From Spirochaetota bacterium (GTDB lineage: Bacteria > Spirochaetota > JAHITG01 > JAFGFC01), in contig JAFGFC010000051.1 in assembly GCA_016931325.1 (NCBI GenBank), positions 12,639-76,638 of the forward strand: DNA of 64,000 nucleotides. The letters are read 5' to 3'. This document shows, piece by piece, positions 7,858-43,685 of this stretch. A program made the translations under genes and the position numbers. Each line of letters begins with the position of its first letter. Position 1 is the first letter of the stretch. Below the pieces are notes generated by a model. The model was not told where the DNA came from. It saw nothing but the letters and a program-made list of their open reading frames with translations, and searched no databases.

Positions 7858-8925
7858 TTATTGTGCCTTTAATTTCCTCTCCATTTTCTTGATCCTGTTC
7901 AGCATCGCCAGCGCTTCTTTGCCGTATTTGGAGTTTTTATCAAGTTCGATCACCTTGTAAAGCATCTCCTTGGAATCCTCTATCCTCTGCTGGGCATAGT
8001 AGAACTTGGCTTTTTCAAGATAAAATTTCTGATCTTTCAATATATCTTTCTTCGACATGACCTTTTCTTCATCATCTCCCTCCATTATGGTTTCTTTCTC
8101 CTTTTCTCCTTTTTCTGAACTGTAGAAAAGGTTAGGAAAGCGATGGTAATAGGAAAGAATGAGAAGCGTGAATCTTTTCTTCTCTTTATCCCACCGGGAT
8201 GAAAGATAGATATTTTCAAGATCGTAATTAAAATTATACCCCAGCCCGGGTACAAGATATTCTTTCTGCAAGCCGGCCAGCATATAAAGGCCTTTGATAA
8301 GATTTATGTCAAAGGACAAGGAGTAATCCGTTATATCAGACATATCCTTTGGTAATAAAAGACCGGTCAAAAATTTTATATCATCAGTAACTTTAAGGGT
8401 AGATCCCATGTTTATCGTCATGGGCAAAAGATTATGATCTGTGGCATTTTTCAGGCTGGCTCCCAGGTCCCACCATTTTAAAATCCTTAACAGGAATCCC
8501 ATGTCAAAATCGCTGAATTTTATTTTTTTACCGTCCTTGTCTATGATCACATATTTATAGGACAGGCCATATTTAAGAAAACGGATCAATGTTCCCCCTA
8601 TCCCGATTAAAAACTGTTCATAATGATCTTTCTTTTCCATGCCCAGCCCTATATTAAGGGACGTCCAGTAGTATTGGCTTAAGCATGGAAATCGTGTCAG
8701 ATAGTAACCCATATAAAATGATGAAAAAGTAAATTTCTCGGAAGTGGATAAGGCTATCTGGCCCAATGATTTGGATAGATTGAAAAGTGTGGCCGGGTTG
8801 TAAGAAAGCCCTGATATATCTTCACCCAGAGTCACAGATCCATATTTATGGACCTCATTCCTCGCTGAAAAACCCAACAGGGTGTTGATCATCAGCATGA
8901 ATAAGATAAAAACTCTTTTAACCAT
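7858..8925 (-). CDS. FadL/PorV-like outer-membrane barrel with a short C-terminal TPR-like tail
   Basis: Signal peptide present. SVTLGEDISGLSYNPATLFNL motif. The C-terminal EKAKFYYAQQRIEDSKEMLYKVIELDKNSKYGKEA is TPR-like. Its start overlaps the stop of the upstream GGDEF gene by 8 nt. Confidence 0.5.
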   Translation of the reverse strand: MVKRVFILFMLMINTLLGFSARNEVHKYGSVTLGEDISGLSYNPATLFNLSKSLGQIALSTSEKFTFSSFYMGYYLTRFPCLSQYYWTSLNIGLGMEKKDHYEQFLIGIGGTLIRFLKYGLSYKYVIIDKDGKKIKFSDFDMGFLLRILKWWDLGASLKNATDHNLLPMTINMGSTLKVTDDIKFLTGLLLPKDMSDITDYSLSFDINLIKGLYMLAGLQKEYLVPGLGYNFNYDLENIYLSSRWDKEKKRFTLLILSYYHRFPNLFYSSEKGEKEKETIMEGDDEEKVMSKKDILKDQKFYLEKAKFYYAQQRIEDSKEMLYKVIELDKNSKYGKEALAMLNRIKKMERKLKAQ

Positions 8926-10780
8926 ACGTAACCTGGTTCCTTCCTTTCTCCTTAGATTGATATAAGGCTTTATCTGCTCTTTCGATCAACTTTTTAGAAT
9001 CAATTGATGAATCCATGGACGAAGATACCCCTATGGAAATAGTCACCTTTAATTTTTTACCTCTGGATGTGGTAACCGTCATCTGCTGGACCTCTTTTCG
9101 GATCCTTTCGGCTGTATGCAAGGCATTTTCTTTATCGGTATCCGGCAAAAGAATGCCAAATTCTTCGCCGCCATAACGTCCGGCTATGTCATTTCTCACC
9201 CTGTTCTGGCGAATATGGGCCAGGATCACACCGGCCACTCTGGCCAGGACCAGATCCCCTACTTGATGGCCATAGGTGTCATTGAATTGTTTGAAATGAT
9301 CAATATCGGTCATTAACAATGATGTGGATCTTTTTTCCTTTCCGGCATTGGCCAGTTCGCTCTTTAACGTGCCCATAAAATACCGCCTTGCCATCAGTTT
9401 GGTCAGCTGATCCTCTGTGGCCTCTTTATACAATTTTTCATATTTCGATAATTCCTGTGTCAGCTGGTCTGCCAGATGATTGAAGGTATGGGCAAATTTA
9501 CCGAACTCGTCTGTCCTTTTCATCTTGATCCTGAATTTAAGGTCTTTCAATATCTCATCCGCCCCTTTATCCAGTTTATGGATGGGATAAACAATATAAA
9601 AGGCAAGGGCCAGCCCGGCTATAATACTGAATAAAAGGATCGTGGTTGAAGAAAAAATGCCCTGCATGAGAATAGGCGCTATTTTATGGCGTATGGCATC
9701 GTCCGATATGCCGATCTCATAATACCCCACCGTATTGTTGGCCCAGGTGATCTTTCTGAACATCCTGATAATATCAACATTATCATGAACGGGGAAGGCG
9801 CGGGCCTTGAAAAACAGCTTGGCTTCATAAAACTGTTTCAGGTCCTCATCAATCCTTTCAAGATTTTTCATGATATGGTTGATATTCTTCTTTACCTTGA
9901 ATATCAGATTTTGAAAGGGATATATTTCCTGGATGTTCCTCAAAGGCCTGGAAACATTTTTATTCTTTTCAAGGATATTGTCCATCCTTTTCATGCTTTC
10001 ATGCAATGACAGGTTGATCCTGTTAAGTGTTTTGATCCTTCTGTCCTGACTGCGTGATGACAGGTCAGAGTAGATGATGCTCAGCTTTTTTTCGTAGACC
10101 GGAGAACGTTCTTTTACCAGTTCCCGTAATTTATTAATCTGACGGACCTGTTCCGGGAGCAGCCTGTTGGCGTAATGAAAAAGAGCCCTCGCCTGCTTTA
10201 TCCTCTCTTTAATATTCTTAATCTGACCCATGATCTGGTTGGATGAAATGATCTGGTTGTTGATGCTGATAAATCGGTTAAAGTTGCTGTTGATAGAATA
10301 GAACTCCCTCATGTCCCTTTCATATTCTTCTCTGTAATCGTTCACCACATAATATTTTTCATTGACCGTGTCCACTTTTTCAAAGGCTTTTGAGCTCTTC
10401 CTTTTTATGACTCTTTTTCTGGTTTCCACCTCGTTGCGGGTTATTTCCAGTTCTCTTTTCCCCATGTCAAGCAGCACAAGATTCTTTTTATAGATGTACT
10501 CCGCGCGGTTAATAACATCAAGCACCTTAAGATAGATCAGCTCTTCATTGACATCAAACACCTTCAGGAGGATGACATTTAAATTCTCCAGGCCGGCATT
10601 ATTTAAAAGCTGCTCGGCGATGATATTGTTGTTGTTCTCCAGATTCTGGCTTATCCGGTGTATGATCTCGCTCTTTAACCTTGGTTTATACTGGGTATTG
10701 GAAAGATAAAGGATCGTGATACTCAGACTGAGCACGAGGAGGATAGTAAGGAATATAATAACCGTATATTTTATACTCAT
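8918..10780 (-). CDS. Membrane-anchored diguanylate cyclase (GGDEF) with a large coiled-coil-rich periplasmic region and a HAMP-like linker
   Basis: Two transmembrane segments. C-terminal GGDEF domain (DIDHFKQFNDTYGHQVGDLVL...RYGGEEFGILLPDT...KALYQSKEKGRNQV). Confidence 0.85.
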   Translation of the reverse strand: MSIKYTVIIFLTILLVLSLSITILYLSNTQYKPRLKSEIIHRISQNLENNNNIIAEQLLNNAGLENLNVILLKVFDVNEELIYLKVLDVINRAEYIYKKNLVLLDMGKRELEITRNEVETRKRVIKRKSSKAFEKVDTVNEKYYVVNDYREEYERDMREFYSINSNFNRFISINNQIISSNQIMGQIKNIKERIKQARALFHYANRLLPEQVRQINKLRELVKERSPVYEKKLSIIYSDLSSRSQDRRIKTLNRINLSLHESMKRMDNILEKNKNVSRPLRNIQEIYPFQNLIFKVKKNINHIMKNLERIDEDLKQFYEAKLFFKARAFPVHDNVDIIRMFRKITWANNTVGYYEIGISDDAIRHKIAPILMQGIFSSTTILLFSIIAGLALAFYIVYPIHKLDKGADEILKDLKFRIKMKRTDEFGKFAHTFNHLADQLTQELSKYEKLYKEATEDQLTKLMARRYFMGTLKSELANAGKEKRSTSLLMTDIDHFKQFNDTYGHQVGDLVLARVAGVILAHIRQNRVRNDIAGRYGGEEFGILLPDTDKENALHTAERIRKEVQQMTVTTSRGKKLKVTISIGVSSSMDSSIDSKKLIERADKALYQSKEKGRNQVTYG

Positions 10781-30690: not shown

Positions 30691-32166
30691 ATGCAAAAGA
30701 AAAAAGTGATTGTGATCGGGGCCGGCTTTGGAGGCCTGACCACCGCTGCCCTTCTGGCCAGGAATGGATTTAATGTGACCGTAATCGAAAAGAACAGCAT
30801 GCCCGGCGGCCGGGCGATTGTTTATAAAGAAAAAGGATTTGTCTTTGATATGGGCCCGTCCTGGTATCTCATGCCCGAGGCGATGGAACGCTATTTTAAC
30901 CTTTTTGATAAAAGCGCCCGTGATTTTTACAAGCTGGTCAGACTTGATCCTTCCTACCGCGTTTTTTACGGTAAAAAGGAACAGTATGACATCAAGGCCG
31001 GTTTGAAGGATAATTTTAATACCTTTAACCTGATGCAAAAAGACGGCGCCGGAAAATTGAAACGTTACCTGGATCAGGCCGAATATCAGTATGACATCGC
31101 CGTAAAAAAATTTCTTTATCGTGATTATACCAGCTTTTTCGATTTTATGGACCGGGACCTCATCAGGGACGGGCTGAAACTAAAGATCTTTTATAATGTT
31201 GATAAAATGGCTGACCGTTTCGGCCTGGAAGATAAATTAAAAAAAATCATTGGATATACCATGGTCTTTATTGGCGGCAGCCCCAAAAACACGCCGGCTT
31301 TATACAGTCTGATGACGCATATCGACCTTAATCTGGGTGTCTGGTATCCTATGGGAGGGATGGGTGAGATCCCGAAAGCCCTGGAAAAATTAGGCAAAGC
31401 CCTGGGTGTCACATACCTGTATGATCATAATGTGATTAAGATCACGGTTGAAAACCGAATGGCTAAAAATGTGATCACGGATAAAGGGACTTTTCCCGGA
31501 GATATCATCCTTTCGAATGCTGATTATCATCATACAGAAACCAAACTTTTAGAAAAGCGTTACCGCACTTATTCTGACGGTTACTGGAAAAGGAAGGTGA
31601 TCTCACCTTCCTCATTTATCATCTATATGGGCCTGAGTAAAAAATTAAAAAATCTGGTTCACCACAATCTTTATTTCCATAACAACTGGGATGAGCATTT
31701 TCAGACTATTTTTGATAAACCCCAGTGGCCAGATAAATTTTCCTATTATATTTCATGTCCATCCAAAACAGATCCTTCCGTGGCACCCCGCGGGAAAGAA
31801 AACCTTTTCTTTCTCGTGCCGGTGGCAGCGGGCCTGGTCGATACGGATGAGATAAGGGAAAAAGTGTATGAAAAAGTGATCAGCCATTTCGAGGATCTCA
31901 TAGGAGAAAAAGTCTCTGATTCAATTATTCACAGGCGGATATTTTCTCACCGTGACTTTATCGGGCTCTATCACTCCTACAAGGGGTCGGCTTTTTCACT
32001 GGCTCATACCCTGCTCCAGACCGCTTTGTTCCGTTGCGCCCGTAAGAGCAAAAAAGTGAAAAACCTCTATTTTACAGGGCAGTATACCCATCCGGGAGTC
32101 GGTGTCCCCATGAACTTTATCACAGCCGAACTCACGGCTAAGAGCATCATTGAGGATTTTTCCTGA
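30691..32166 (+). CDS. crtI: Phytoene desaturase family FAD-dependent oxidoreductase (CrtI/CrtD-like)
   Basis: N-terminal Rossmann motif VIVIGAGFGGLTTAALLARNGFNVTVIEKNSMPGGRA. Length 491 aa. Confidence 0.75.
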   Translation: MQKKKVIVIGAGFGGLTTAALLARNGFNVTVIEKNSMPGGRAIVYKEKGFVFDMGPSWYLMPEAMERYFNLFDKSARDFYKLVRLDPSYRVFYGKKEQYDIKAGLKDNFNTFNLMQKDGAGKLKRYLDQAEYQYDIAVKKFLYRDYTSFFDFMDRDLIRDGLKLKIFYNVDKMADRFGLEDKLKKIIGYTMVFIGGSPKNTPALYSLMTHIDLNLGVWYPMGGMGEIPKALEKLGKALGVTYLYDHNVIKITVENRMAKNVITDKGTFPGDIILSNADYHHTETKLLEKRYRTYSDGYWKRKVISPSSFIIYMGLSKKLKNLVHHNLYFHNNWDEHFQTIFDKPQWPDKFSYYISCPSKTDPSVAPRGKENLFFLVPVAAGLVDTDEIREKVYEKVISHFEDLIGEKVSDSIIHRRIFSHRDFIGLYHSYKGSAFSLAHTLLQTALFRCARKSKKVKNLYFTGQYTHPGVGVPMNFITAELTAKSIIEDFS

Positions 32167-32174
32167 CCGCAGCC

Positions 32175-32855
32175 ATGAGCACGTACCTGATCATCAATAT
32201 CATTATTATCGCTTTCCCTCTCACCTTCAGTTTCTGGCCGCGTATCCGTTACTACAAGAAATGGCCATTTTTATTTTTATCCATTCTCATCACCGGCCCC
32301 ATTTATATCTTCTGGGACGTTCTGGTCACCCTCAGGGGTGATTGGAGTTTCAACAAATCTCATGTGGGGTCGTTCAACCTCTTTCACCTGCCCGTGGAAG
32401 AAATACTTTTTTTTATCACAGCCCCCTACAGCTGTATCTTTATCTATGAATCCTTAAATACGTTTATTAAAGATAAAAAAGTAGCATATAACCCGTACAT
32501 CTATTACGGGGTTATCGTGCTTTTGCTCGGCCTGGCTTTTTTTTATCGCGCTCAGGATTATACCCTGCTGGCTTTGCTCTCCTGCGCCTTTTTTTTAATA
32601 ACAGCCCTCATCATCCGGCCGGCCATGCTCTCTTCCAGGCTTTACTGGGGTTATATTCTGATCAGCTTTGTCGCTTTTTTCATCTTTAATTATGTTTTAA
32701 CCTCTTATCCCGTGGTCATCTATAATCCCAAAGCCATTTGGGGATTAAGGATCACTACAATACCGCTGGAGGATTTCTTTTATAATTATTCCATGCTTTC
32801 TTTTTATCTCTTCTTCTATCAGTTCTTTCAGAAAAACAAAAAAAAGGCAGGATAA
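32175..32855 (+). CDS. Lycopene cyclase domain protein (CrtYcd-type, two fused repeats)
   Basis: 226-aa polytopic membrane protein with the hLPVEEILFF motif characteristic of the heterodimeric-type lycopene cyclase domain. Confidence 0.55.
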   Translation: MSTYLIINIIIIAFPLTFSFWPRIRYYKKWPFLFLSILITGPIYIFWDVLVTLRGDWSFNKSHVGSFNLFHLPVEEILFFITAPYSCIFIYESLNTFIKDKKVAYNPYIYYGVIVLLLGLAFFYRAQDYTLLALLSCAFFLITALIIRPAMLSSRLYWGYILISFVAFFIFNYVLTSYPVVIYNPKAIWGLRITTIPLEDFFYNYSMLSFYLFFYQFFQKNKKKAG

Positions 32856-33854: not shown

Positions 33855-36800
33855 TCAGGTCTGGACGCAGTTGCGGCCTTTTTCTTTGGCCTTATACAGG
33901 GCTTTATCAGAACGGACAACCAGTTCCTGCCATTCTTCGCCCGGTTCCAGCTCGGCCACTCCAATGGAAGCGGTGATCCTGAGCTGAATATCTTTCTTCC
34001 CCATTCGATAAGAGACCCTGTTGCTTTCAATGATCTTGCGAAGTTTTTCAGCCAGTATTTTAGCCCCATCCAGTCCTGTTTCAGGGATAATAACAGCGAA
34101 TTCCTCTCCCCCGTATCGGGCAGCCGAATCGCTTTTTCTGATATTCTTCTTTATTATCAGAGCTATCTTCTTCAGGACCAGATCCCCGGCCCTATGGCCG
34201 TATTTATCGTTAAAATTCTTAAAATGATCGATATCAAGCATAAGCAGGCTTAACTTGTTCTTATACCGTGTAGCCAGTTCCACGCTTTTCGATAGAAAAT
34301 TTTCAAAAAAATTATGTGTATAAAGTTCTGTCAGGCCGTCGGTTATGGCTTTTTTATAGAGAATGGCATTCTCAATAGAAATCCCGGCCTGACGTGAAAT
34401 AACTTCCAGGACCCTCAGATCTTCTTCTGTAAATACTCCGCTCACCAGCCGATTATCCAGATAGATCACACCCAGCATCTCTTCCCGGCCCATAATAGGC
34501 AGGCTGAGAGCCGACTTTATCCCGAACCGCACAATACTGGCTTCATCCTTAAAATCTTTGTCCAGGGTAGCATCATCCACGATCAAAGGCTTTTTTCCCT
34601 GTTCGACTCTGTTAATGATACCACTGGATGTATGGAACAACTCCCCTTCCAGTTCCACATCTTTTACGTTCTTGGCTACTTTGACTTCCAGAATTTTATC
34701 CTTTTTTTCTTCCACGGGATATAAAAGCAGAATACCGCGTTCCGCCCCCACCAGCTGGATCGCCTTTTCAATAATCTTCTCCAGCAGTTCCTCAAGGTCC
34801 AGAATACTGGAAAAATAACGGCTGGTTTCCAGGACCGTGGTCATTTCCCGCTCGATCTGCAAACGTTCTTTGGGGCTCTCTTTGGCTACCTGCACTTTGA
34901 GATCCAACCCCAGCACGGAGGCGCACCTTTTTATGTATTCCCTGGACCCGATCTCCTGAAAGACCTTAAAAGCCTGCTGCCAGTAGTGATGGGCGCTTTC
35001 GATCTTATTTCCAGCTTCATAAAAGTAGCCCATTTCAAAAAGCGTCTTGCCCAGCTCGAATTTTCTGCCTAATTTCCTGGCCAGTTCCATACTTTTAAAA
35101 AATAAAATTTCCGCTTTTTTTCTTTTATTAATTAAGATATGATATTTGGCATACGACCGCAACGCGGACATATAATGAGTGACCCAGGGGGCGGCCTTTT
35201 TCAAAGCGTCACGGCAAAGGGAACGGATCAGTTTTAAATGGCCTCTGTCCTTCTTTTTCTTCTTTTTGTAATTTTCTATATGAGCATCAGCCAGAACAAA
35301 GTAGAGATTGGCCGTATAATTTTTTAAAAAATCATGGGTTTCATTAATTTCCCTGGCCAGCTGGGCGTACTTGATGGCATCCGCATAATTTCCTTTTTCA
35401 TAAGATAAAATAGACATGCCGATATGCATCCCCAGCAGCGGAAACGGTAATTTTTTAGCCTGGACAATGGAATATCCTCTCCTTAAAGCTTTTTCGGCGG
35501 TATCAATCTCTCCCTGTTCCAGATAGACTTCGATCAGATAACCTAAACAGCTGGTAATGCCAAAGTCATCTTTAATCTCCTCGCTGATCTTTAAATATTC
35601 AAGCAAATGGCCGACCGCTTCTCTGAAGTCACCGGAATAAAGATAATCAATTCCAATCCCCTGAAGCGTCATGCCCAGATTCCAGATATCCTCCACCAGC
35701 CTGTATTTTTCAGCGGCCTGACCCAGATAATCCCGGCTTTTAGCATATTCGCCTTTAAATTGATAGTAATAACCGATGAATTGAAGTGACTGCGCCAGTT
35801 CCCGCTCGTCACCCAGTTCCCTTCGAATTTCCAGAGCCTTAAAATGATATTTTTCAGCTCCCTTGAACATGGGAATTGACATAAGGAGCGAAGCGTAGGC
35901 CCCGATACTGGCGGCCAGCTCTTTTGAACGACCAAGCCTTGATTGAGCGATATGTAATCCTCGAAGGACAGAATGAATAAACTTGCTGATATCCGTCAGG
36001 ATATACATCCAGTCCAGGCTATGATGTGTCACAATGATCGTTATATCCTGGGGATCCTTATGCTTGACCTGTTTTTTTAAATAATAGCGGTTTAAAAAAG
36101 AATGAAAGAAATGCACCGCGGCTTCTCTTACCAGGGCCATCATGACCTCGCTTTTCCTGCGAGGCACTTTCTCGCCTAAAAGAGACAAGCCCCTGGCAAT
36201 GACCTCTTCTGACTCCACCCAGCTGCCCATGTTCAAGTGAGCCTGACCCATATGGATATACAACTTGGCTTTTTCAAATGGGTTCCTCTTTAAAGGAAGG
36301 ATCTCTTTACACAGGTTGATCACTTCATTGGACTTGCCGGCGCTCAGATAGACTTCGATCAACCCTTCTTTTGCCTGCATCCATCTCTTATCCTTTGTTT
36401 TCTCCTTCTCCAGAATGTTCAGCACAATATTATAATATCGTATGGCTTCCTCATTGGCATAATTCTCTTTAGCCCTGTCAGCGGCCCTGATCCCGTATTG
36501 AAGCGATCTGTGTTTATCTCCCCCTTCAATAAAATGATGCGCCAGGTCAAAAATAACCTCTTCGATATTCTGTTTATTTCTTTCTTCCAGGGCCGTCCCG
36601 ATCATAAGATGATATTTTACCCTCTCTTTTTTTGTCATCCGGGCATAAAAAGCGTCCCTGACGCGATCGTGTACGAACATCAACGCGCCTTTTCTGGAAC
36701 TTTTTTCTAAGAGTTGTTTTTCTATTGTAGAATCGATCAGATGAACCAGAATATCCCTGCTCTCTTTCATCAGATCCTGTATCATATCGATCTGAAATTC

Positions 36801-38900
36801 CCTCCCGATAACAGAACTGATGGATAACAATTTCGCCTCTTTTTCCGGAAGGTCCTTGATCCGTAAAAGGAGCATATCCACAATATTTGAACTGACAGGC
36901 AATTTATTGATCTTGGACCAGTTCTCTTTCCAGGACCCTTCTTCCCAGATAAGGGCTTTTCTTTCTACCAGCTCTCTCAATATCGTAATGGCAAAAAAGG
37001 GATTCCCTTTTGTTTTATCAATAAGATAACGGGCAATTTTATCAGCCTTGGATTCACGCTCCCCGAGGACCTCGGCAGCGAGCCTTCGCATACGGCCAAA
37101 ATTAAAATGGCTCAGCTTGATCTCCTCCAGGGGATAATGCATGGCCTTGGACTCTTTTTTTATCCTGTGAATACTATGATCCCGGCCGATCTCATCATCC
37201 CTGTAGGTAGCCAGAAGAAAAAGATTGTTCGTTCTTGACTTTCTTAAAAGCTCTTCTATGAGGCTTAAACTTCCCTCATCAGCCCACTGTATATCATCAA
37301 TGAAAAGAACAACATTCTGCTTCCTGCCGGACAGGGAGGTCAAGAACTTGACATATTCCATTAGATATCTCTTGTTCTCTTTTTCCGGGTCATCAAGCGG
37401 CGTGATCTCGCTCACCTGGCCCAGAATTTCGCTCATATTGGAATTGAATTTCAAAATGATCCCGGTCAGATCCCCGAATATCTTCTTTAACCGTTTCCCT
37501 TCCTGTTTTTTTAACTCCTGGCCTTCCCGTTTTATCCTCCGGATATAATCATCGGTAATATCTTTGAACGGGTGGAACGGCATCTTGTTTTCCTGATTAA
37601 AACACCGTCCCATAAAAAACATGCCTCCCTGCTCGTAGACATAACCCCTTAATTCCTCAACCAGCCGGCTTTTCCCGATACCGGCTTCTCCGGCAATAAA
37701 ACAGAGGCTTCCGGAATGAGCTTTGGCTTTATCATAAAGTTCTTTAAGATCATTGAATTCTTTAGCCCGCCCCACCAGCCTGGACCTGTAAGTCAGCTTT
37801 TTTTTCTGATCCATCTCCCCGATAACGAATGTCTTTTCCCCTTTTTCGAACCGGGCGATATCATGCAAGAATCCTATGGCACTCTGATAACGGATCTCCG
37901 GTTCTTTATCCAGAAGCTTCATGATCATATCTTCCAGGGCTTTTGGTATATTGACATTAACCTTACCGGGTCTGACAGGAATAGCCGCTACCTGCTTGTG
38001 CAGGATCTGGCTTATCTCTTTTCCCACAAAGGGCATCTCCCCTGTTAAAAGTCGGTAAAAGATTATTCCCAGAGAATAAAGGTCACTTCTCTCATCCACC
38101 GGTTTGTTGATAATCCCTGTGGCTTCCGGAGACATATAACCAAACGTTCCTATTATCTCGGCCATTTCTTTGATCTGCCTCAGTTCCATCACGTGGGCCA
38201 GGCCAAAGTCCAAAATCTTTATCTTTTTTGCCTGATCAATGATCACGTTACCCGGCTTGAGGTCGCGGTGCAGGATATTACGGCTGTGAACATAATCAAG
38301 GGCCTCGGTTATCTGTTTTATGATCCTGACCGATTCCTTTATGGTGAATCTTTTTCCTTTCAGTAAAAGATCATAAAGGCTGTCTCCCTTCAACAATTCC
38401 ATCACGATATAGGGGATATTATCATACTCGCCCAAGCCAAATATTTTAACAATACCGGGATGATTAAATTTGGAGACGATCTCGACTTCTTTTTTAAATC
38501 TGATCTTATCCTCCAAAAAAGAAGAGATCCTGTTCTTTTTAAGGAATTTTATAGCCACTTCCTTTTTGGCCTTGTTATCAAAAGCTCTGTAGACAGAGGC
38601 CATTCCCCCTTCACCCAGTTTCGCTTTGATCTTATACTGTCCACTTATGATTGTTGATGATTTCAGTTCCAAGAACTCTCCCCTGACCTTTACCTCGTCT
38701 GTATTAGTATCGCCTAAAATGATTCTCTTCTTAAGGAGCAAAAGGTTATTTTCAATTATACTAAATAAATTACCAAGGGCAAGCAATTTCTGGCCACCAA
38801 TGCAAGAGAAACCACCCTTAGGAATCGCTATGCGATTCCTAAGGGTGGTTTCTCTTGTAAAAGTTAATTGACTTTGGCATTTTTTACCTGTATATTTCAT
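33855..38900 (-). CDS. Multidomain signalling protein: Ser/Thr kinase – STAND (AAA_16) NTPase – TPR repeats – GAF – GGDEF
   Basis: Kinase motifs (LGEGGMASVY, AIK, HRDLKPGNVII, DFGLA, SPE). P-loop GEAGIGKSRLVEEL. Long TPR-like region. GAF domain (VGAERGILLLY...GVIYLDNR). GGDEF domain (RYGGEEFAVIIPETG, KALYKAKEKGRNCV). The N-terminal 100 aa and the exact start are uncertain. Confidence 0.8.
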   Translation of the reverse strand: MKYTGKKCQSQLTFTRETTLRNRIAIPKGGFSCIGGQKLLALGNLFSIIENNLLLLKKRIILGDTNTDEVKVRGEFLELKSSTIISGQYKIKAKLGEGGMASVYRAFDNKAKKEVAIKFLKKNRISSFLEDKIRFKKEVEIVSKFNHPGIVKIFGLGEYDNIPYIVMELLKGDSLYDLLLKGKRFTIKESVRIIKQITEALDYVHSRNILHRDLKPGNVIIDQAKKIKILDFGLAHVMELRQIKEMAEIIGTFGYMSPEATGIINKPVDERSDLYSLGIIFYRLLTGEMPFVGKEISQILHKQVAAIPVRPGKVNVNIPKALEDMIMKLLDKEPEIRYQSAIGFLHDIARFEKGEKTFVIGEMDQKKKLTYRSRLVGRAKEFNDLKELYDKAKAHSGSLCFIAGEAGIGKSRLVEELRGYVYEQGGMFFMGRCFNQENKMPFHPFKDITDDYIRRIKREGQELKKQEGKRLKKIFGDLTGIILKFNSNMSEILGQVSEITPLDDPEKENKRYLMEYVKFLTSLSGRKQNVVLFIDDIQWADEGSLSLIEELLRKSRTNNLFLLATYRDDEIGRDHSIHRIKKESKAMHYPLEEIKLSHFNFGRMRRLAAEVLGERESKADKIARYLIDKTKGNPFFAITILRELVERKALIWEEGSWKENWSKINKLPVSSNIVDMLLLRIKDLPEKEAKLLSISSVIGREFQIDMIQDLMKESRDILVHLIDSTIEKQLLEKSSRKGALMFVHDRVRDAFYARMTKKERVKYHLMIGTALEERNKQNIEEVIFDLAHHFIEGGDKHRSLQYGIRAADRAKENYANEEAIRYYNIVLNILEKEKTKDKRWMQAKEGLIEVYLSAGKSNEVINLCKEILPLKRNPFEKAKLYIHMGQAHLNMGSWVESEEVIARGLSLLGEKVPRRKSEVMMALVREAAVHFFHSFLNRYYLKKQVKHKDPQDITIIVTHHSLDWMYILTDISKFIHSVLRGLHIAQSRLGRSKELAASIGAYASLLMSIPMFKGAEKYHFKALEIRRELGDERELAQSLQFIGYYYQFKGEYAKSRDYLGQAAEKYRLVEDIWNLGMTLQGIGIDYLYSGDFREAVGHLLEYLKISEEIKDDFGITSCLGYLIEVYLEQGEIDTAEKALRRGYSIVQAKKLPFPLLGMHIGMSILSYEKGNYADAIKYAQLAREINETHDFLKNYTANLYFVLADAHIENYKKKKKKDRGHLKLIRSLCRDALKKAAPWVTHYMSALRSYAKYHILINKRKKAEILFFKSMELARKLGRKFELGKTLFEMGYFYEAGNKIESAHHYWQQAFKVFQEIGSREYIKRCASVLGLDLKVQVAKESPKERLQIEREMTTVLETSRYFSSILDLEELLEKIIEKAIQLVGAERGILLLYPVEEKKDKILEVKVAKNVKDVELEGELFHTSSGIINRVEQGKKPLIVDDATLDKDFKDEASIVRFGIKSALSLPIMGREEMLGVIYLDNRLVSGVFTEEDLRVLEVISRQAGISIENAILYKKAITDGLTELYTHNFFENFLSKSVELATRYKNKLSLLMLDIDHFKNFNDKYGHRAGDLVLKKIALIIKKNIRKSDSAARYGGEEFAVIIPETGLDGAKILAEKLRKIIESNRVSYRMGKKDIQLRITASIGVAELEPGEEWQELVVRSDKALYKAKEKGRNCVQT
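38803..38857. repeat. Perfect 26-bp-arm inverted repeat with a 3-nt loop (caagagaaaccacccttaggaatcgc-tat-gcgattcctaagggtggtttctcttg)
   Basis: Read directly. Lies within the first ~100 nt of the annotated kinase ORF, 45-100 nt from the divergent gene at 38946. Confidence 0.7.
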
Positions 38901-38945: not shown

Positions 38946-39707
38946 ATGAAAAAGATCTCTATTTTATCCATTTTGATATCCTTATTTCTAGCCGCTGTCT
39001 TGATAGCAGGTGAGGTAGAGGACCTTGTTGAAAAAGGCAATACCGCCTTTGACAAATGGGATTACAGCAAGGCCATTGAATATTACAAAGAAGCCCTTAA
39101 AAAAGATGAAAAGAATTTTACCGCCTTATGGAAGACAGCTAATGCATATATCAATCTCGGCGTACTGGAACAGGAGGATGATGACAAAAAAGAATCCCTT
39201 TTTAATCAGGGATCTTTATTTGCTCAAAAGGCGGTCAAAGAACATCCTCAAAAAGCGGACGGCTATGCCATGCTCTCCATTGCGGAAGGCCGACTGGCTA
39301 TGTTCGCCGGTGGTAAAAGAAAGGTCGAATTATCCAAGAGTGTCAAAAAAAATGCGCAACTCGCTTTGAAATATGACCCTAACCATGACGGAGCCCTGCA
39401 TGTACTGGGGGCCTGGCATAGAGAAGTGGCCACACTAGGCGGATTTCTAAAATTCTTTGCCAAAGTCCTTTATGGCGGCTTGCCCGATGCAAATATGAAA
39501 GATTCCATAAAATATCTGGAAAAAGCTGTAAAAGTAAAACCATCTAATATCGAACACCATCTGGACCTGGCTAAAAGCTATATTGAAGAAGACATGGAAG
39601 ATAAAGCCAGAAAGGAGTTAAAACTGGCTATTGAACTTCCTCCCACAGAGGGTTATGATAAATTAAATAAAGCAGAAGCCAAAGAACTATTAGAAGATCT
39701 TGATTAA
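38946..39707 (+). CDS. Secreted TPR-like repeat protein
   Basis: Signal peptide present. Helical repeats (AIEYYKEALKKDEKN, ALWKTANAYINLG...). Confidence 0.45.
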   Translation: MKKISILSILISLFLAAVLIAGEVEDLVEKGNTAFDKWDYSKAIEYYKEALKKDEKNFTALWKTANAYINLGVLEQEDDDKKESLFNQGSLFAQKAVKEHPQKADGYAMLSIAEGRLAMFAGGKRKVELSKSVKKNAQLALKYDPNHDGALHVLGAWHREVATLGGFLKFFAKVLYGGLPDANMKDSIKYLEKAVKVKPSNIEHHLDLAKSYIEEDMEDKARKELKLAIELPPTEGYDKLNKAEAKELLEDLD

Positions 39708-40232: not shown

Positions 40233-41264
40233 TTACTCTATCCTGTTCATTATCTCTTTTACATTGACCTTTTCATCCTCGCTGGACTGGCTGTTCATGT
40301 ATAAAAGAAAAATGTCGTCGCCCTCTTTTTTAAACCCATACAGATTTCCTGCTTTATGGCCTATTACTTCCGGATCGATCATTTTCTGTAAACCCGCATG
40401 ATATAGCCGGTACTCGGTTTCTGACCGACCCTGGGCTCCCGCATCCGCATCCATCCTGATCACGATCACCCATTGTTTATCCGGACTGGTCTCAATGATC
40501 TGAAAAACTGACGAGGGATCCTGCTCCAGGACTATTTTTTCACCCTGCATGGTCTCAATAATAACAGCATCCTGCTTTTCATTCGCATAAATATCTTTTA
40601 TCTCGCCCTCCACATCAAAAAAGATATCAGACAAACAGGTATCATTATACTGAGCTCCCTTATAGATATCCTTTATTTGGAATCTGAGGATATAACGGGT
40701 ATTGATCGAATCCGGTGCCTGACTCCCCTTGTCTGACCCTTTGGCCTTTTTAATCTCGTCTTTGAAAAGTTTCAGTTTGTTCCAATCAAAGGGAAAGGGG
40801 ATCTTCTGTACATCCATGGTGTCTTTTAAAAGCAGGTTACGCTCCTCATTATATTTGTAAATATCAAAAAGGACCTGAGTCTCTGTGGCATGACCTGATC
40901 TTTCTATTCCGAGATAGAGGGATAAACGTAACACCTTGACCCTGTTATTCTTCTCAAAAATATCTTTTGACCGCGCGTATCCATTCACAATGTTAATATT
41001 CTTTACCCCTTCTTTTATAGCCAGATAGACGGATTGCCCTTTGCCTTCGTCTTCAGTCCCTTCCACCCAGGCTGTTGAACTGTTTTTATCAAAAAGATTA
41101 TGCGCCCCATAAGGACCCAGTTCGAAAGAAGAAGACGGTTTTTTCATTTCCGATGTGGCCAGGAAAAGATTACCCCCGATATCATATAAAAATAAAGTCT
41201 CTGGTTTCCTTCCGCAGCCCAATAAAAGTAAAGAGATCATAATAAGAATACTGATCGCTTTCAT
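40233..41264 (-). CDS. Hypothetical lipoprotein
   Basis: Signal peptide with lipobox LLGCG. No family recognised. Confidence 0.4.
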   Translation of the reverse strand: MKAISILIMISLLLLGCGRKPETLFLYDIGGNLFLATSEMKKPSSSFELGPYGAHNLFDKNSSTAWVEGTEDEGKGQSVYLAIKEGVKNINIVNGYARSKDIFEKNNRVKVLRLSLYLGIERSGHATETQVLFDIYKYNEERNLLLKDTMDVQKIPFPFDWNKLKLFKDEIKKAKGSDKGSQAPDSINTRYILRFQIKDIYKGAQYNDTCLSDIFFDVEGEIKDIYANEKQDAVIIETMQGEKIVLEQDPSSVFQIIETSPDKQWVIVIRMDADAGAQGRSETEYRLYHAGLQKMIDPEVIGHKAGNLYGFKKEGDDIFLLYMNSQSSEDEKVNVKEIMNRIE

Positions 41265-41480: not shown

Positions 41481-43685
41481 GTGACATTGAAAAAAATCTT
41501 AAAAAATGAGCAAAAACTTTTATTTGTCTCCAATCGTCTGCCCATTACCATTCAAAGACGCAAAAAAGATATAAAATTTATTCCGAGTATTGGGGGTCTG
41601 GCGACCGGACTCGGATCATTCTATAAAACATATAACAGCCTCTGGATCGGATGGTGCGGAATAACCAAGGACGATCTGGATAAAAAATCAAAAGATTTTA
41701 TCGCTGCCCGGTTACGCGCGGATTTTAAAAGCCATACCCTGTATTTGACAAAAAAAGATATTGACCAGTATTATTATGGATTCTGCAACAAGACGATCTG
41801 GCCTCTTTTTCATTATTTTACTCATCACGCGATCTATGATAAGGATTTCTGGGGATCCTATCAAAAGATCAATCAGTATTTCTGCAAAGAAATACTGAAA
41901 ATCGCCTCTGACAACGATATTATATGGATCCATGATTATCACCTTATGCTGCTTCCCCACATGCTGCGTGAAAAGTTACCTGAGTCCCAGATAGGATTCT
42001 ATCTTCATATTCCTTTCCCCTCTTTTGAGATCTTTCGTCTGTTACCATGGCGAAAAGAGATCCTGGAAGGATTGTTGGGTTCTGATCTGATCGGCTTTCA
42101 TACCTATGATTATGTGCGCCATTTTTTAAGTAGTGTCAGAAGACTTTTAGGCTGCGAACATACACTGGGTCAAGTCTCTGTTGAAAACCGCCTGGTAAAA
42201 GTTGATGCGTTTCCCATGGGAATCGATTATGACCGTTTCTCCAAGAGCCTCCAGAAAAAAAATATCATAAAAGAGATCAACAAAAGAAAAAAACAGTTCG
42301 CTGATAAAAAGATCATCCTGTCACTGGATCGCATGGATTATACAAAAGGCATCCTGGAACGTCTGGAAGCGTTTGATCTCTTTCTTGAAACCTACCCTGA
42401 TTATAAAGAAAAGATCACTCTCATCCTTATCGCCGTGCCTTCCCGTACTGAAGTCCAGACCTATATGGAATTAAAAAGTCAAGTGGATGAAATGGTCGGG
42501 AGGATCAATGGGAAATACGGGTCCATAGACTGGATCCCGGTCCGGTATATGAACCGCTCTTTTCCTTTTGAAAAGCTGATCCCTTTCTATAATATGGCTG
42601 ATATCGCTCTGATCACACCCCTCAGGGATGGGATGAACCTGATCGCCAAAGAATACATTGCCACAAAAACGGATAAAAAGGGTGTTTTGATCCTGAGCGA
42701 AATGGCAGGGGCCGCTCGCGAGCTGGGAGAATCACTGATCGTTAACCCGAACAATAAGCAGGAAGTCGCGCAGGCTATCTTTCAAGCCATCAACATGACA
42801 TCCGAGGATCAAAAAGAAAGAAACGCCATTATGCAGAACAGGCTCGAGCGTTATCATGTCAAGGCCTGGGCTCAAGACTTTTTAGACCGTCTTATCCGCA
42901 TAAAAAAGATCCAGGGAGAATTGTACGCCAAGGTCATAACTCCGGAATTAAAGGATCATCTGATCCATTCTTACCGCTCAAAAAGGAAACGGCTCATCCT
43001 TCTGGATTATGACGGTACGCTAACGCCTTTCTTTGAAAAACCGGAACAGGCGCGTCCTAATATTGAGATCCTTGAGCTCTTAAAAAAATTGGCTCGAGAC
43101 CCGAAAAATGAACTTGTCATTCTCAGCGGTCGCGAAAAAGAGATCCTTGACAACTGGTTCAGTAAAATTCCCCTTGGGATGAGCGCTGAGCACGGGGTCT
43201 GGATCAAAGGAAGAGGGAAAAAATGGCATTTGATAGAGCAGCTCAGAAATGAATGGAAAAATGAGATACGCTCCCTTATGGAACTTTACGTCAATCGCAC
43301 ACCCGGGTCTTTTCTGGAAGAAAAAGATTATTCCCTGGTCTGGCATTACAGAAAGGCTGATCCTGAATTCGCCATGTTACGCCTTTTAGAATTAAAAGAT
43401 GACCTTTTGCATTTTACTCATAATCTGAATATTGGACTTTTAGAAGGGACCAAAACACTTGAAGTCAAAAATGCCGGAATTAATAAAGGACGGGCTGCCA
43501 TGCACTGGATTTCCGGCAATAAATGGGATTTTATCATGGCTATAGGAGATGACTGGACCGATGAAGACATCTTCATCTCTCTTCCTGAATCCGCTTTTTC
43601 CATCAGAGTGGGGCTTTATCCTACCCGTGCCAAATATACCATAGATTCGGTTACAAAAGTGTTATCTCTATTGAAAAAGTTATGA
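41481..43685 (+). CDS. otsAB: Bifunctional trehalose-6-phosphate synthase / trehalose-6-phosphate phosphatase (OtsA-OtsB fusion)
   Basis: GT20 motifs (FVSNRLP, GFYLHIPFPSFEIFRLLPWR, LIGFHTYDY). C-terminal HAD phosphatase (LILLDYDGTLTPF). GTG start. Confidence 0.85.
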   Translation: MTLKKILKNEQKLLFVSNRLPITIQRRKKDIKFIPSIGGLATGLGSFYKTYNSLWIGWCGITKDDLDKKSKDFIAARLRADFKSHTLYLTKKDIDQYYYGFCNKTIWPLFHYFTHHAIYDKDFWGSYQKINQYFCKEILKIASDNDIIWIHDYHLMLLPHMLREKLPESQIGFYLHIPFPSFEIFRLLPWRKEILEGLLGSDLIGFHTYDYVRHFLSSVRRLLGCEHTLGQVSVENRLVKVDAFPMGIDYDRFSKSLQKKNIIKEINKRKKQFADKKIILSLDRMDYTKGILERLEAFDLFLETYPDYKEKITLILIAVPSRTEVQTYMELKSQVDEMVGRINGKYGSIDWIPVRYMNRSFPFEKLIPFYNMADIALITPLRDGMNLIAKEYIATKTDKKGVLILSEMAGAARELGESLIVNPNNKQEVAQAIFQAINMTSEDQKERNAIMQNRLERYHVKAWAQDFLDRLIRIKKIQGELYAKVITPELKDHLIHSYRSKRKRLILLDYDGTLTPFFEKPEQARPNIEILELLKKLARDPKNELVILSGREKEILDNWFSKIPLGMSAEHGVWIKGRGKKWHLIEQLRNEWKNEIRSLMELYVNRTPGSFLEEKDYSLVWHYRKADPEFAMLRLLELKDDLLHFTHNLNIGLLEGTKTLEVKNAGINKGRAAMHWISGNKWDFIMAIGDDWTDEDIFISLPESAFSIRVGLYPTRAKYTIDSVTKVLSLLKKL

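Follow-up and report, generated by a model that had tools for sequence, protein, structure and literature searches.

The product of a long minus-strand gene in this Spirochaetota bacterium joins an N-terminal Hanks-type Ser/Thr kinase, a STAND NTPase core, a long TPR solenoid, a GAF domain, and a C-terminal GGDEF domain, with intact and conserved catalytic motifs. We read it, with reasonable though not high confidence, as a STAND-gated transducer with effectors at both ends, the Hanks kinase at the N-terminus and a GAF–GGDEF cyclase at the C-terminus. The kinase, AAA_16/STAND, TPR, GAF, and GGDEF domains named in an earlier note on this DNA were all confirmed with high significance by Pfam. 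The architecture is widespread and already present in databases and in the literature, and the gene is an ordinary member of a known family.

Reading frame, start codon, and upstream DNA

An uninterrupted open reading frame occupies 33855..38900 on the minus strand of the window (the whole 64-kb stretch of DNA that was analyzed), with 1681 codons plus a stop when counted from its first ATG. The earlier note took this maximal frame as the protein; the frame stands, but the length of 1681 aa is probably an over-extension in which codons 1 to 53–76 are not translated. In the 29 closest homologues inspected, the protein starts 16–32 residues ahead of the G-loop, mostly 17–22, and a Shine–Dalgarno sequence, AGGGGAG at 38678–38684, lies 5 nt upstream of a TTG codon at 38672. 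Because both the homologue N-termini and this strong Shine–Dalgarno sequence fit it, the TTG at 38672 is favored over longer starts, and the most probable coding sequence is 33855..38672 (minus strand, 1605 aa). The identical protein is deposited in GenBank as a “diguanylate cyclase” (MBN1897781.1, our P0001) that starts at a TTG at 38741 and has 1628 aa. The gene is real, and its product is a large, soluble, cytoplasmic, stand-alone signaling protein. Domain and residue numbers below follow the 1681-aa frame.

The dropped N-terminal codons hold both a promoter candidate and a palindrome. The sigma-70-like candidate (TTGCCC-16-TATAAT; 38755..38782, minus strand) lies within the 1681-codon frame, yet upstream of both TTG starts (38672 and 38741); it matches the consensus at 10 of 12 positions, and sigma-70-like sites in the region are no more numerous than expected from shuffled sequence. 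In the palindrome (38804..38856), perfect inverted-repeat arms of 25 bp flank a 3-nt loop. None of this kind is expected by chance, and it is placed between divergent promoter candidates for the kinase–GGDEF gene and for a TPR gene at 38946..39707. An operator or a 5′ structure is a possible role. The repeat was absent upstream of relatives at the three related loci searched, and is thus not a family feature.

Catalytic domains and the predicted STAND core

The kinase domain (aa 89–339; 37884..38636, minus strand) matches Pfam Pkinase with E 3e-58, and among solved structures M. tuberculosis PknB is nearest to it (E 1e-48). Its motifs are all canonical (G-loop GEGGMASV, VAIK, HRDLKPGN, DFG, and GTFGYMSPE) and cover the whole signature of G-loop, β3 Lys, HRDxKxxN, DFG, and (S/T)PE, by which the domain would be a Hanks-type Ser/Thr kinase. 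At the other end of the protein, a GAF domain (aa 1368–1509; 34374..34799, minus strand; Pfam GAF E 5e-17, GAF_2 E 1e-15) lies immediately N-terminal to the GGDEF domain (aa 1518–1677; 33870..34349, minus strand; Pfam GGDEF E 5e-47). The latter scores 160 bits with PF00990 (cut-off 23.8) and 177 bits with TIGR00254 (cut-off 37.4), and its closest solved structures are 3ign, WspR, and PleD. The A-site GGEEF (34098–34112, minus strand), the metal and base site LDIDHFKNFND, GHRAGD, and the KxxGRN segment are canonical. An RxxD I-site, RKSD (34128–34139, minus strand), is found five residues upstream of the A-site (RKSD-SAARY-GGEEF), as in the feedback-inhibited subclass. The A-site, the metal and guanine residues, and the curated cut-offs all point to a diguanylate cyclase. 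The GAF–GGDEF pair also resembles the DgcA equivalog NF041606, which was rejected as an assignment, since 190 bits falls short of the curated cut-off (370), and amounts to a resemblance of the cassette. The earlier note's view that the GGDEF domain looks intact was thus borne out, and the kinase residues are not degenerate either. The hub proposed there, in which phospho-signaling by the Ser/Thr kinase and a STAND NTPase switch feed into c-di-GMP synthesis, is retained as the best functional hypothesis, since every catalytic residue is intact and conserved.

Between the two enzymatic domains lies a STAND core of NBD, HD, and WHD (aa ~379–744; 36669..37766, minus strand); AAA_16 matches at aa 374–562 (Pfam E 1e-28). 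Walker A GEAGIGKS (37668–37691) and Walker B VLFIDDIQWAD (37278–37310), both on the minus strand, predict the P-loop NBD of a STAND NTPase; further core motifs are a sensor-1-like R in ATYRDDE, GNPFF, and the WHD motif FVHDR (36663–36677, minus strand). A helical arm and a long TPR/SUPR-like solenoid, the presumed sensor, follow at aa ~745–1330 (34911..36668, minus strand), with Pfam TPR_12 and TPR_MalT matches at about aa 1014–1205. In 54 diverse homologues, the G/G/K of Walker A, the D of Walker B, the W and D of DDxQWAD, the R of TYRD, the G-N of GNPFF, and the F-x-H of FVHD are invariant, and the P-F-F of GNPFF is nearly so.

A NOD profile (alignment A2) searched against PDB sequences found no solved STAND protein and only generic P-loop matches (ClpC, RadA, and NtrC). 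Because this profile could not assign a clade, placement was based on fold comparison. An AlphaFold2 model of the central part of the protein (aa 341–1361, 1021 aa; pLDDT 87.3, pTM 0.81) consists of an NBD–HD–WHD STAND core and a TPR solenoid, such that the core, arm, and repeat sensor of a STAND-like fold can all be recognized in the prediction. GNPFF falls in the HD and FVHD in the WHD of this model, which holds no nucleotide, and by position they may be the counterparts of the GLPL and MHD motifs of the ADP clamp. Foldseek against the PDB returned the STAND–TPR protein PH0952 as the best match (6mfv, E 4e-15), followed by Apaf-1, CED-4, and MalT (8bob), with no Avs structure among the top structural matches. 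The predicted fold therefore places the protein beside MalT and PH0952, and suggests that it belongs to the MalT/PknK-like branch of STAND NTPases. The STAND switch model and the presence of Ser/Thr kinases such as PknK within the MalT subfamily have been described (PMC4381067, PMC6468293).

A common chassis with exchangeable outputs

The earlier note had held that a common architecture already described in relatives would speak against its reading, and this is what was found: besides the GenBank entry MBN1897781.1, the full kinase–AAA_16–TPR–GAF–GGDEF architecture is present in 40 of the 120 best database matches, the NTPase–TPR module matched 10,465 clusters (50% identity) at E≤1e-30, and a 2005 catalogue lists a similar protein. 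That catalogue (Krupa & Srinivasan 2005, PMC1262709) describes a 1826-aa “Kinase + 6 TPR + GGDEF” protein of Clostridium thermocellum, which probably belongs among these siblings. In the literature searched, this exact architecture appeared at the level of such catalogue mentions alone, and no biochemical study of a member was found. The database siblings, annotated “diguanylate cyclase” in MAGs of Spirochaetota, Omnitrophota, Bacillota, and Desulfobacterota, have the identical full architecture at about 1605–1660 aa, with 37–61% identity over 95% of the protein, shared catalytic motifs, and no architectural difference.

The closest relatives share a common kinase–STAND–TPR–GAF chassis on which the output is swapped, the outputs being GGDEF, histidine kinase, SpoIIE phosphatase, and AraC, LuxR, or LytTR DNA-binding domains. 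For 134 extra representatives, output classes were assigned with domain-specific HMMs that agreed exactly with Pfam labeling for the first 120 matches. There are 64 members with a GGDEF output. DFG is retained in 52 of 62 aligned kinase domains and GG[DE]EF in 59 of 66 aligned GGDEF stretches (degenerate in the other 7), while RxxD is kept in the common tally variants and in 52 of the 57 tails that bear GG[DE]EF. As some members have a degenerate DFG or GGDEF motif, not every member uses both activities. A scan of genome contigs in which the GGDEF peptide pattern prevailed returned mostly unrelated GAF–GGDEF genes and few full-length relatives (L005, L032, and L039). Two family proteins, P0008 and P0013, are encoded on one contig and are suspected tandem paralogues.

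Several known systems share parts of this design. MalT, PH0952, and PknK likewise combine an NBD–HD–WHD core, an arm, and a TPR/SUPR sensor, and the predicted fold is nearest to 6mfv and MalT (8bob and 1hz4), whereas sequence similarity between solved STAND proteins and the present NOD is below detection. The MalT of E. coli and the PH0952 of P. horikoshii have a DNA-binding effector, whereas the present protein carries an enzymatic effector at either end. M. tuberculosis PknK also begins with a Ser/Thr kinase (PMC4381067), but lacks a GAF–GGDEF cassette. In the cyanobacterial cbSTKIII/HstK dual protein kinases, a Ser/Thr kinase is joined via GAF to a second output (PMC2176072), which is HisKA/HATPase rather than GGDEF; the present protein has no Pfam match to HisKA or HATPase. 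Non-cyanobacterial proteins with a histidine kinase output are 39–51% identical to it over about 85% of its length, and cyanobacterial plasmid genes annotated “multi-sensor hybrid multi-kinase” show ~24% identity in the NTPase part. The TOMM kinase/cyclase fusion TIGR03903, the NCBIfam model that fits the NTPase region best, likewise unites a kinase, a nucleotide cyclase, and an AAA_16–TPR part; its cyclase, however, is a class III adenylate/guanylate cyclase located N-terminal to the NTPase, and the present locus has no TOMM gene context. Assignment to this equivalog was rejected, as its 289 bits are far short of the curated cut-off (705.75) and the NTPase region alone aligned.

Proposed mechanism and rival explanations

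In the STAND-gated transducer that we favor, the NOD (NBD–HD–WHD) would rest in an ADP-bound form locked by the arm and the TPR sensor. Binding of an inducer (a small molecule, peptide, or partner protein) to the TPR solenoid, possibly with a second input via the GAF domain, would release this lock, allow exchange of ADP for ATP, and cause the NOD to multimerize. Kinase domains brought together in this way could trans-autophosphorylate their activation loops (Thr in GTFGYMSPE), and the same multimerization would let the GAF–GGDEF segments dimerize and synthesize c-di-GMP; a GGDEF enzyme needs a dimer because each protomer holds one GTP. The RxxD I-site would then mediate feedback inhibition by the product. 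We infer the ligand-gated ADP/ATP switch, the oligomerization, and the proximity activation of both enzymes by analogy with established knowledge of STAND proteins, Hanks kinases, and GGDEF enzymes. Histidine kinase, SpoIIE, AraC, LuxR, and LytTR outputs all act as dimers or oligomers, and this dependence across the family fits activation by induced proximity.

The kinase need not be co-activated: its main substrates could be other proteins, or it could control the cyclase in cis. In the cis arrangement it would chiefly autophosphorylate its own linker, GAF, or GGDEF domain, or obey c-di-GMP, while the NTPase sensed nucleotide or formed a fixed scaffold instead of acting as an oligomerization switch. 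All 64 members carry their kinase and GGDEF domains on one polypeptide, and the cassette resembles stand-alone GAF–GGDEF cyclases (NF041606), which work without a STAND module; both facts are consistent with such regulation. In 54 homologues, the STAND residues that would bind and hydrolyze nucleotide and form the putative ADP clamp are invariant, which argues instead for a working switch, and the chassis also drives DNA-binding outputs, where cis-phosphorylation of a GGDEF domain is irrelevant, so that we consider this explanation unlikely. It is still less probable, in our judgment, that the GGDEF domain serves chiefly to bind c-di-GMP at its I-site or to dimerize and that the real output is protein phosphorylation. 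The intact RKSD I-site and the degenerate GGDEF motifs in 7 of 66 relatives would suit a receptor, but in the present protein GGEEF, DIDHFKNFND, GHRAGD, and KxxGRN are all canonical, and 59 of 66 relatives keep GG[DE]EF.

The earlier note had also left room for a defense-related role, given the layout of Avs proteins. On such a reading, the TPR region would detect a protein of the phage, and growth arrest or abortive infection would follow from the kinase, from c-di-GMP, or from both. The order of effector, STAND, and sensor is generally Avs-like, Avs1–4 having the same tripartite logic with a TPR-like sensor, and the PADLOC kinase models PD-T4-6, mad6, and MkoA match the kinase domain strongly. 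However, the 25 PADLOC matches listed (of 38) for the whole protein are all confined to the generic Hanks kinase domain, and aa 341–1361 matched no Avs model, only one generic TPR model and, marginally, two non-Avs models. The structural neighbors are PH0952, MalT, and Apaf-1. Pfam revealed no cell-killing effector (nuclease, protease, Sir2, TIR, and similar) in the protein, the effectors being the Hanks kinase and GAF–GGDEF, and the sister outputs (histidine kinase, SpoIIE, AraC, LuxR, and LytTR) are signaling rather than toxic modules. The neighboring genes in the window are housekeeping genes (FeoAB, carotenoid genes, OtsAB, IDH, and MreBCD/PBP2/RodA), with no defense or mobile genes around the locus. 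In three relatives the neighbors are unrelated housekeeping genes (S15/PNPase/FtsK, a phosphate transporter, and a nitroreductase), and neither there nor in the window is the gene located in a defense island or mobile element. A search of 50,697 phage genomes gave a single weak match. HMM, fold, context, and family outputs are thus all contrary to the defense reading, which we reject as hardly credible. Comparison of the three relatives' loci also revealed no conserved partner gene, as befits a self-contained one-component transducer.

The favored transducer can be extended to a bolder proposal: a diguanylate cyclase gated by STAND oligomerization and a kinase fired by the same event, such that one sensing step gives two outputs of different chemistry, on a chassis that acts as a universal induced-proximity driver for at least six dimerization-dependent outputs. 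We advance this tentatively, thinking it somewhat more apt to fail than to hold. No STAND-controlled GGDEF enzyme was found in the literature searched, and STAND gating would, if true, be a new regulatory mode for c-di-GMP signaling, even if databases already contain the gene family. The significance of this gene is modest, since it holds nothing beyond hundreds of database siblings and is not a new defense system. It exemplifies a large, widespread, and experimentally untouched class in which a MalT/PknK-type STAND module is flanked by a Ser/Thr kinase and an exchangeable output, and characterization of one member would reveal whether STAND oligomerization gates a diguanylate cyclase and how phospho-signaling and c-di-GMP are coupled.

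Domain architecture and the central NTPase-TPR module

The megaprotein gene is a single unbroken minus-strand ORF in the window (33855..38900; 1681 codons counted from the first ATG, on which residue numbers are based). Five Pfam domain matches, to Pkinase (aa 89-339, E 3e-58), AAA_16 (aa 374-562, E 1e-28), TPR_12/TPR_MalT (about aa 1014-1205), GAF (aa 1368-1509, E 5e-17) and GGDEF (aa 1518-1677, E 5e-47), indicate that the kinase/STAND NTPase/TPR/GAF/GGDEF layout proposed in an earlier note is real. The GGDEF domain (GGEEF), which had also been described as intact-looking, carries canonical motifs (LDIDHFKNFND, GHRAGD, I-site RKSD, A-site GGEEF), as do the kinase (GEGGMASV, VAIK, HRDLKPGN, DFG, GTFGYMSPE) and the NTPase (Walker A GEAGIGKS, Walker B VLFIDDIQWAD). 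The nearest solved structures are M. tuberculosis PknB for the kinase domain (E 1e-48) and 3ign, WspR and PleD for the GGDEF domain.

The structure of aa 341-1361 was predicted from an alignment of 54 homologues (A1; mean pLDDT 87.3, pTM 0.81); in the model a Rossmann-like NBD leads into a helical and a winged-helix domain and then into a predicted TPR solenoid of ~30 helices. Its top Foldseek match in the PDB was the STAND-TPR protein PH0952 (6mfv, E 4e-15), followed by Apaf-1, CED-4 and MalT (8bob); Avs structures were absent from both top lists of fold matches. A sequence profile of the NOD (the NBD-HD-WHD core) reached no solved STAND, so the suggested placement beside MalT/PH0952 rests on the predicted fold. 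The Walker A G/G/K, the D, W and D of DDxQWAD, the TYRD R, the GNPFF G-N and the FVHD F and H are invariant in 54/54 homologues, and this conservation of STAND signature residues argues for a functioning nucleotide switch.

Gene start and genomic neighborhood

The 1681-aa length given earlier is an over-extension; the GenBank start, the homologue N-termini and an SD site all lie further downstream. The identical GenBank entry (MBN1897781.1) has 1628 aa and a TTG start at 38741. Homologue N-termini lie 16-32 residues, mostly 17-22, ahead of the glycine-rich loop (29 closest homologues inspected), which points to an in-frame TTG at 38672 with AGGGGAG upstream (spacer 5 nt). This start yields 1605 aa, and the two nearest relatives have 1607-1608 aa. 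Judged from these N-termini and the strong SD, even the start in the deposited annotation may lie 23 aa too far upstream, and the first 53-76 ORF codons (38672..38900) are probably non-coding. The codons so dropped share their DNA with a sigma-70-like promoter candidate (38782..38755) and with a perfect 25-bp inverted repeat (38804..38856; AAGAGAAACCACCCTTAGGAATCGC-ATA-GCGATTCCTAAGGGTGGTTTCTCTT, 3-nt loop), which occurs once in the window and was not found upstream of three relatives' genes. Two divergent promoter candidates, one for the megaprotein gene (-35 at 38782) and one for a TPR gene (-35 at 38868), have the repeat exactly between them; it could serve a dimeric regulator as operator, or form a cruciform or an RNA hairpin.

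This divergent TPR gene (38946..39707, plus strand; 253 aa, RMD1-3-like match) adjoins the megaprotein gene and is the sole recurring neighbor: the relative at 61% identity has, ~850 bp downstream, a gene for a 254-aa protein of like Pfam pattern (L001, 7868..8632), and the gene is absent from the loci of more distant relatives. Either functional partnership or shared synteny is possible. The relatives' neighborhoods are otherwise housekeeping and unrelated (nitroreductase and TPR in L001; phosphate transporter and Rex-like regulator in L002; UvrD-like helicase, S15, PNPase and FtsK in L003/L004). Since, in addition, the gene downstream of the megaprotein (215 aa) lies 260 nt off with an SD of its own, the megaprotein has the look of a stand-alone one-component transducer.

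Defence, integrase and transposase genes are absent from the 64-kb window, which is ordinary chromosome. The window encodes a sigma factor, PTS enzyme I, TonB, a metal ABC transporter, a TonB-dependent receptor, FeoAB, a flavodoxin-like protein, isocitrate dehydrogenase, MreBCD, PBP2, RodA, a radical-SAM protein, an alanine symporter and YkuD. A second diguanylate cyclase, a 620-aa HAMP-GGDEF protein (8918..10780, minus strand; GGDEF E 4e-48), indicates several c-di-GMP synthases in the genome. A 491-aa flavin amine-oxidase/phytoene-desaturase-like gene followed by a 226-aa lycopene cyclase domain protein (30691..32855, plus strand), with a DUF2141 protein upstream, forms a small carotenoid-type cluster in this GenBank-labelled Spirochaetes MAG. 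Also present are a fused OtsA-OtsB trehalose-6-phosphate synthase/phosphatase (41481..43685, plus strand; Glyco_transf_20 + Trehalose_PPase, 734 aa, GTG start) and a 343-aa protein (40233..41264, minus strand) without a PADLOC match, in which Pfam recognizes only an NAD glycohydrolase translocation F5/8 type C domain (PF25302, E 2e-22).

A widespread family with exchangeable outputs

When 8,000 candidates were scored against the full megaprotein, >7,000 matched significantly. The top 120 (identity 37-61%, query coverage 72-96%, lowest for truncated entries) come from Spirochaetota, Omnitrophota, Bacillota/Clostridia, Desulfobacterota and others, and end in GGDEF (40), HisKA/HATPase (59) or SpoIIE (13), with 8 truncated; this split was reproduced with purpose-made HMMs. 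With the NTPase-TPR part alone, 10,465 clusters (50% identity) were matched at E<=1e-30, a number that rose to 59,020 at E<=1e-10, and most of the best 150 matches aligned over ~1000 residues from about residue 265-275, right behind a kinase domain. Among 134 additional representatives, classified with these HMMs in place of a BLAST scheme flawed by GAF cross-matches, outputs were GGDEF (24), SpoIIE (23) and His kinase (15), and about 40 further full-length proteins end otherwise, four of them by Pfam in GerE/LuxR, HTH_18/AraC, LytTR and PAS+GerE. Across 64 GGDEF-output members, 52/62 aligned kinase domains retain DFG and 59/66 aligned GGDEF stretches retain GG[DE]EF. In four homologue pairs (P0008/P0013, P0044/P0059, P0067/P0085, P0093/P0107) the longest contigs are equal in size (for example, 26,434 bp, 135,409 bp and 83,879 bp), which suggests that a single contig carries paralogous copies of the chassis, like those reported for Anabaena alr0709/alr0710.

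The earlier note had counted a common, already described layout against its reading, and the architecture is indeed common, already annotated (GenBank title 'MAG: diguanylate cyclase [Spirochaetes bacterium]') and already catalogued: a 1826-aa Clostridium thermocellum protein is listed as 'Kinase + 6 TPR repeats + GGDEF', with the comment that it implies a Ser/Thr kinase link to c-di-GMP (Krupa & Srinivasan 2005, PMC1262709). The cyanobacterial dual kinases HstK and Pkn40/41 are Ser/Thr kinase–GAF–His kinase proteins (PMC2176072). The literature searched yielded no experimental work on a kinase–STAND–GGDEF protein.

A role as an Avs-like defence protein, which the same note had left open, found no support and is very unlikely. 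PADLOC matches of the whole megaprotein (25 listed of 38) are confined to the kinase domain (PD-T4-6, mad6, MkoA), and the NTPase-TPR part alone matches no Avs model; its fold neighbors are those named above. The context here and in L001-L004 is housekeeping, the alternative outputs of the chassis are of signaling type, and 50,697 phage genomes held one weak match only.

A proposed proximity-driven mechanism

MalT-type STANDs, which include Ser/Thr kinases such as PknK, use an ADP/ATP switch driven by inducer (PMC4381067, PMC6468293). By analogy with MalT/PH0952-type STANDs, a mechanism is proposed where an inducer on the TPR solenoid would open the NOD, ADP would be exchanged for ATP and the megaprotein would multimerize. 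GGDEF enzymes act with two domains face to face, one GTP each, and Hanks kinases are switched on by trans-autophosphorylation in dimers; because both need proximity, multimerization would activate the kinase and cyclase ends simultaneously, and the RxxD I-site would then restrain c-di-GMP output. The kinase could in addition act on the cyclase in cis. To our knowledge, every alternative output on the chassis acts as a dimer or oligomer, which fits induced proximity. A hub of phospho-signaling, STAND and c-di-GMP, as earlier suggested, is a reasonable reading: its domains and intact motifs stand, while the activities and oligomerization would follow by analogy. New value would come only from biochemical characterization of the STAND-gated cyclase mechanism that we infer for this family.
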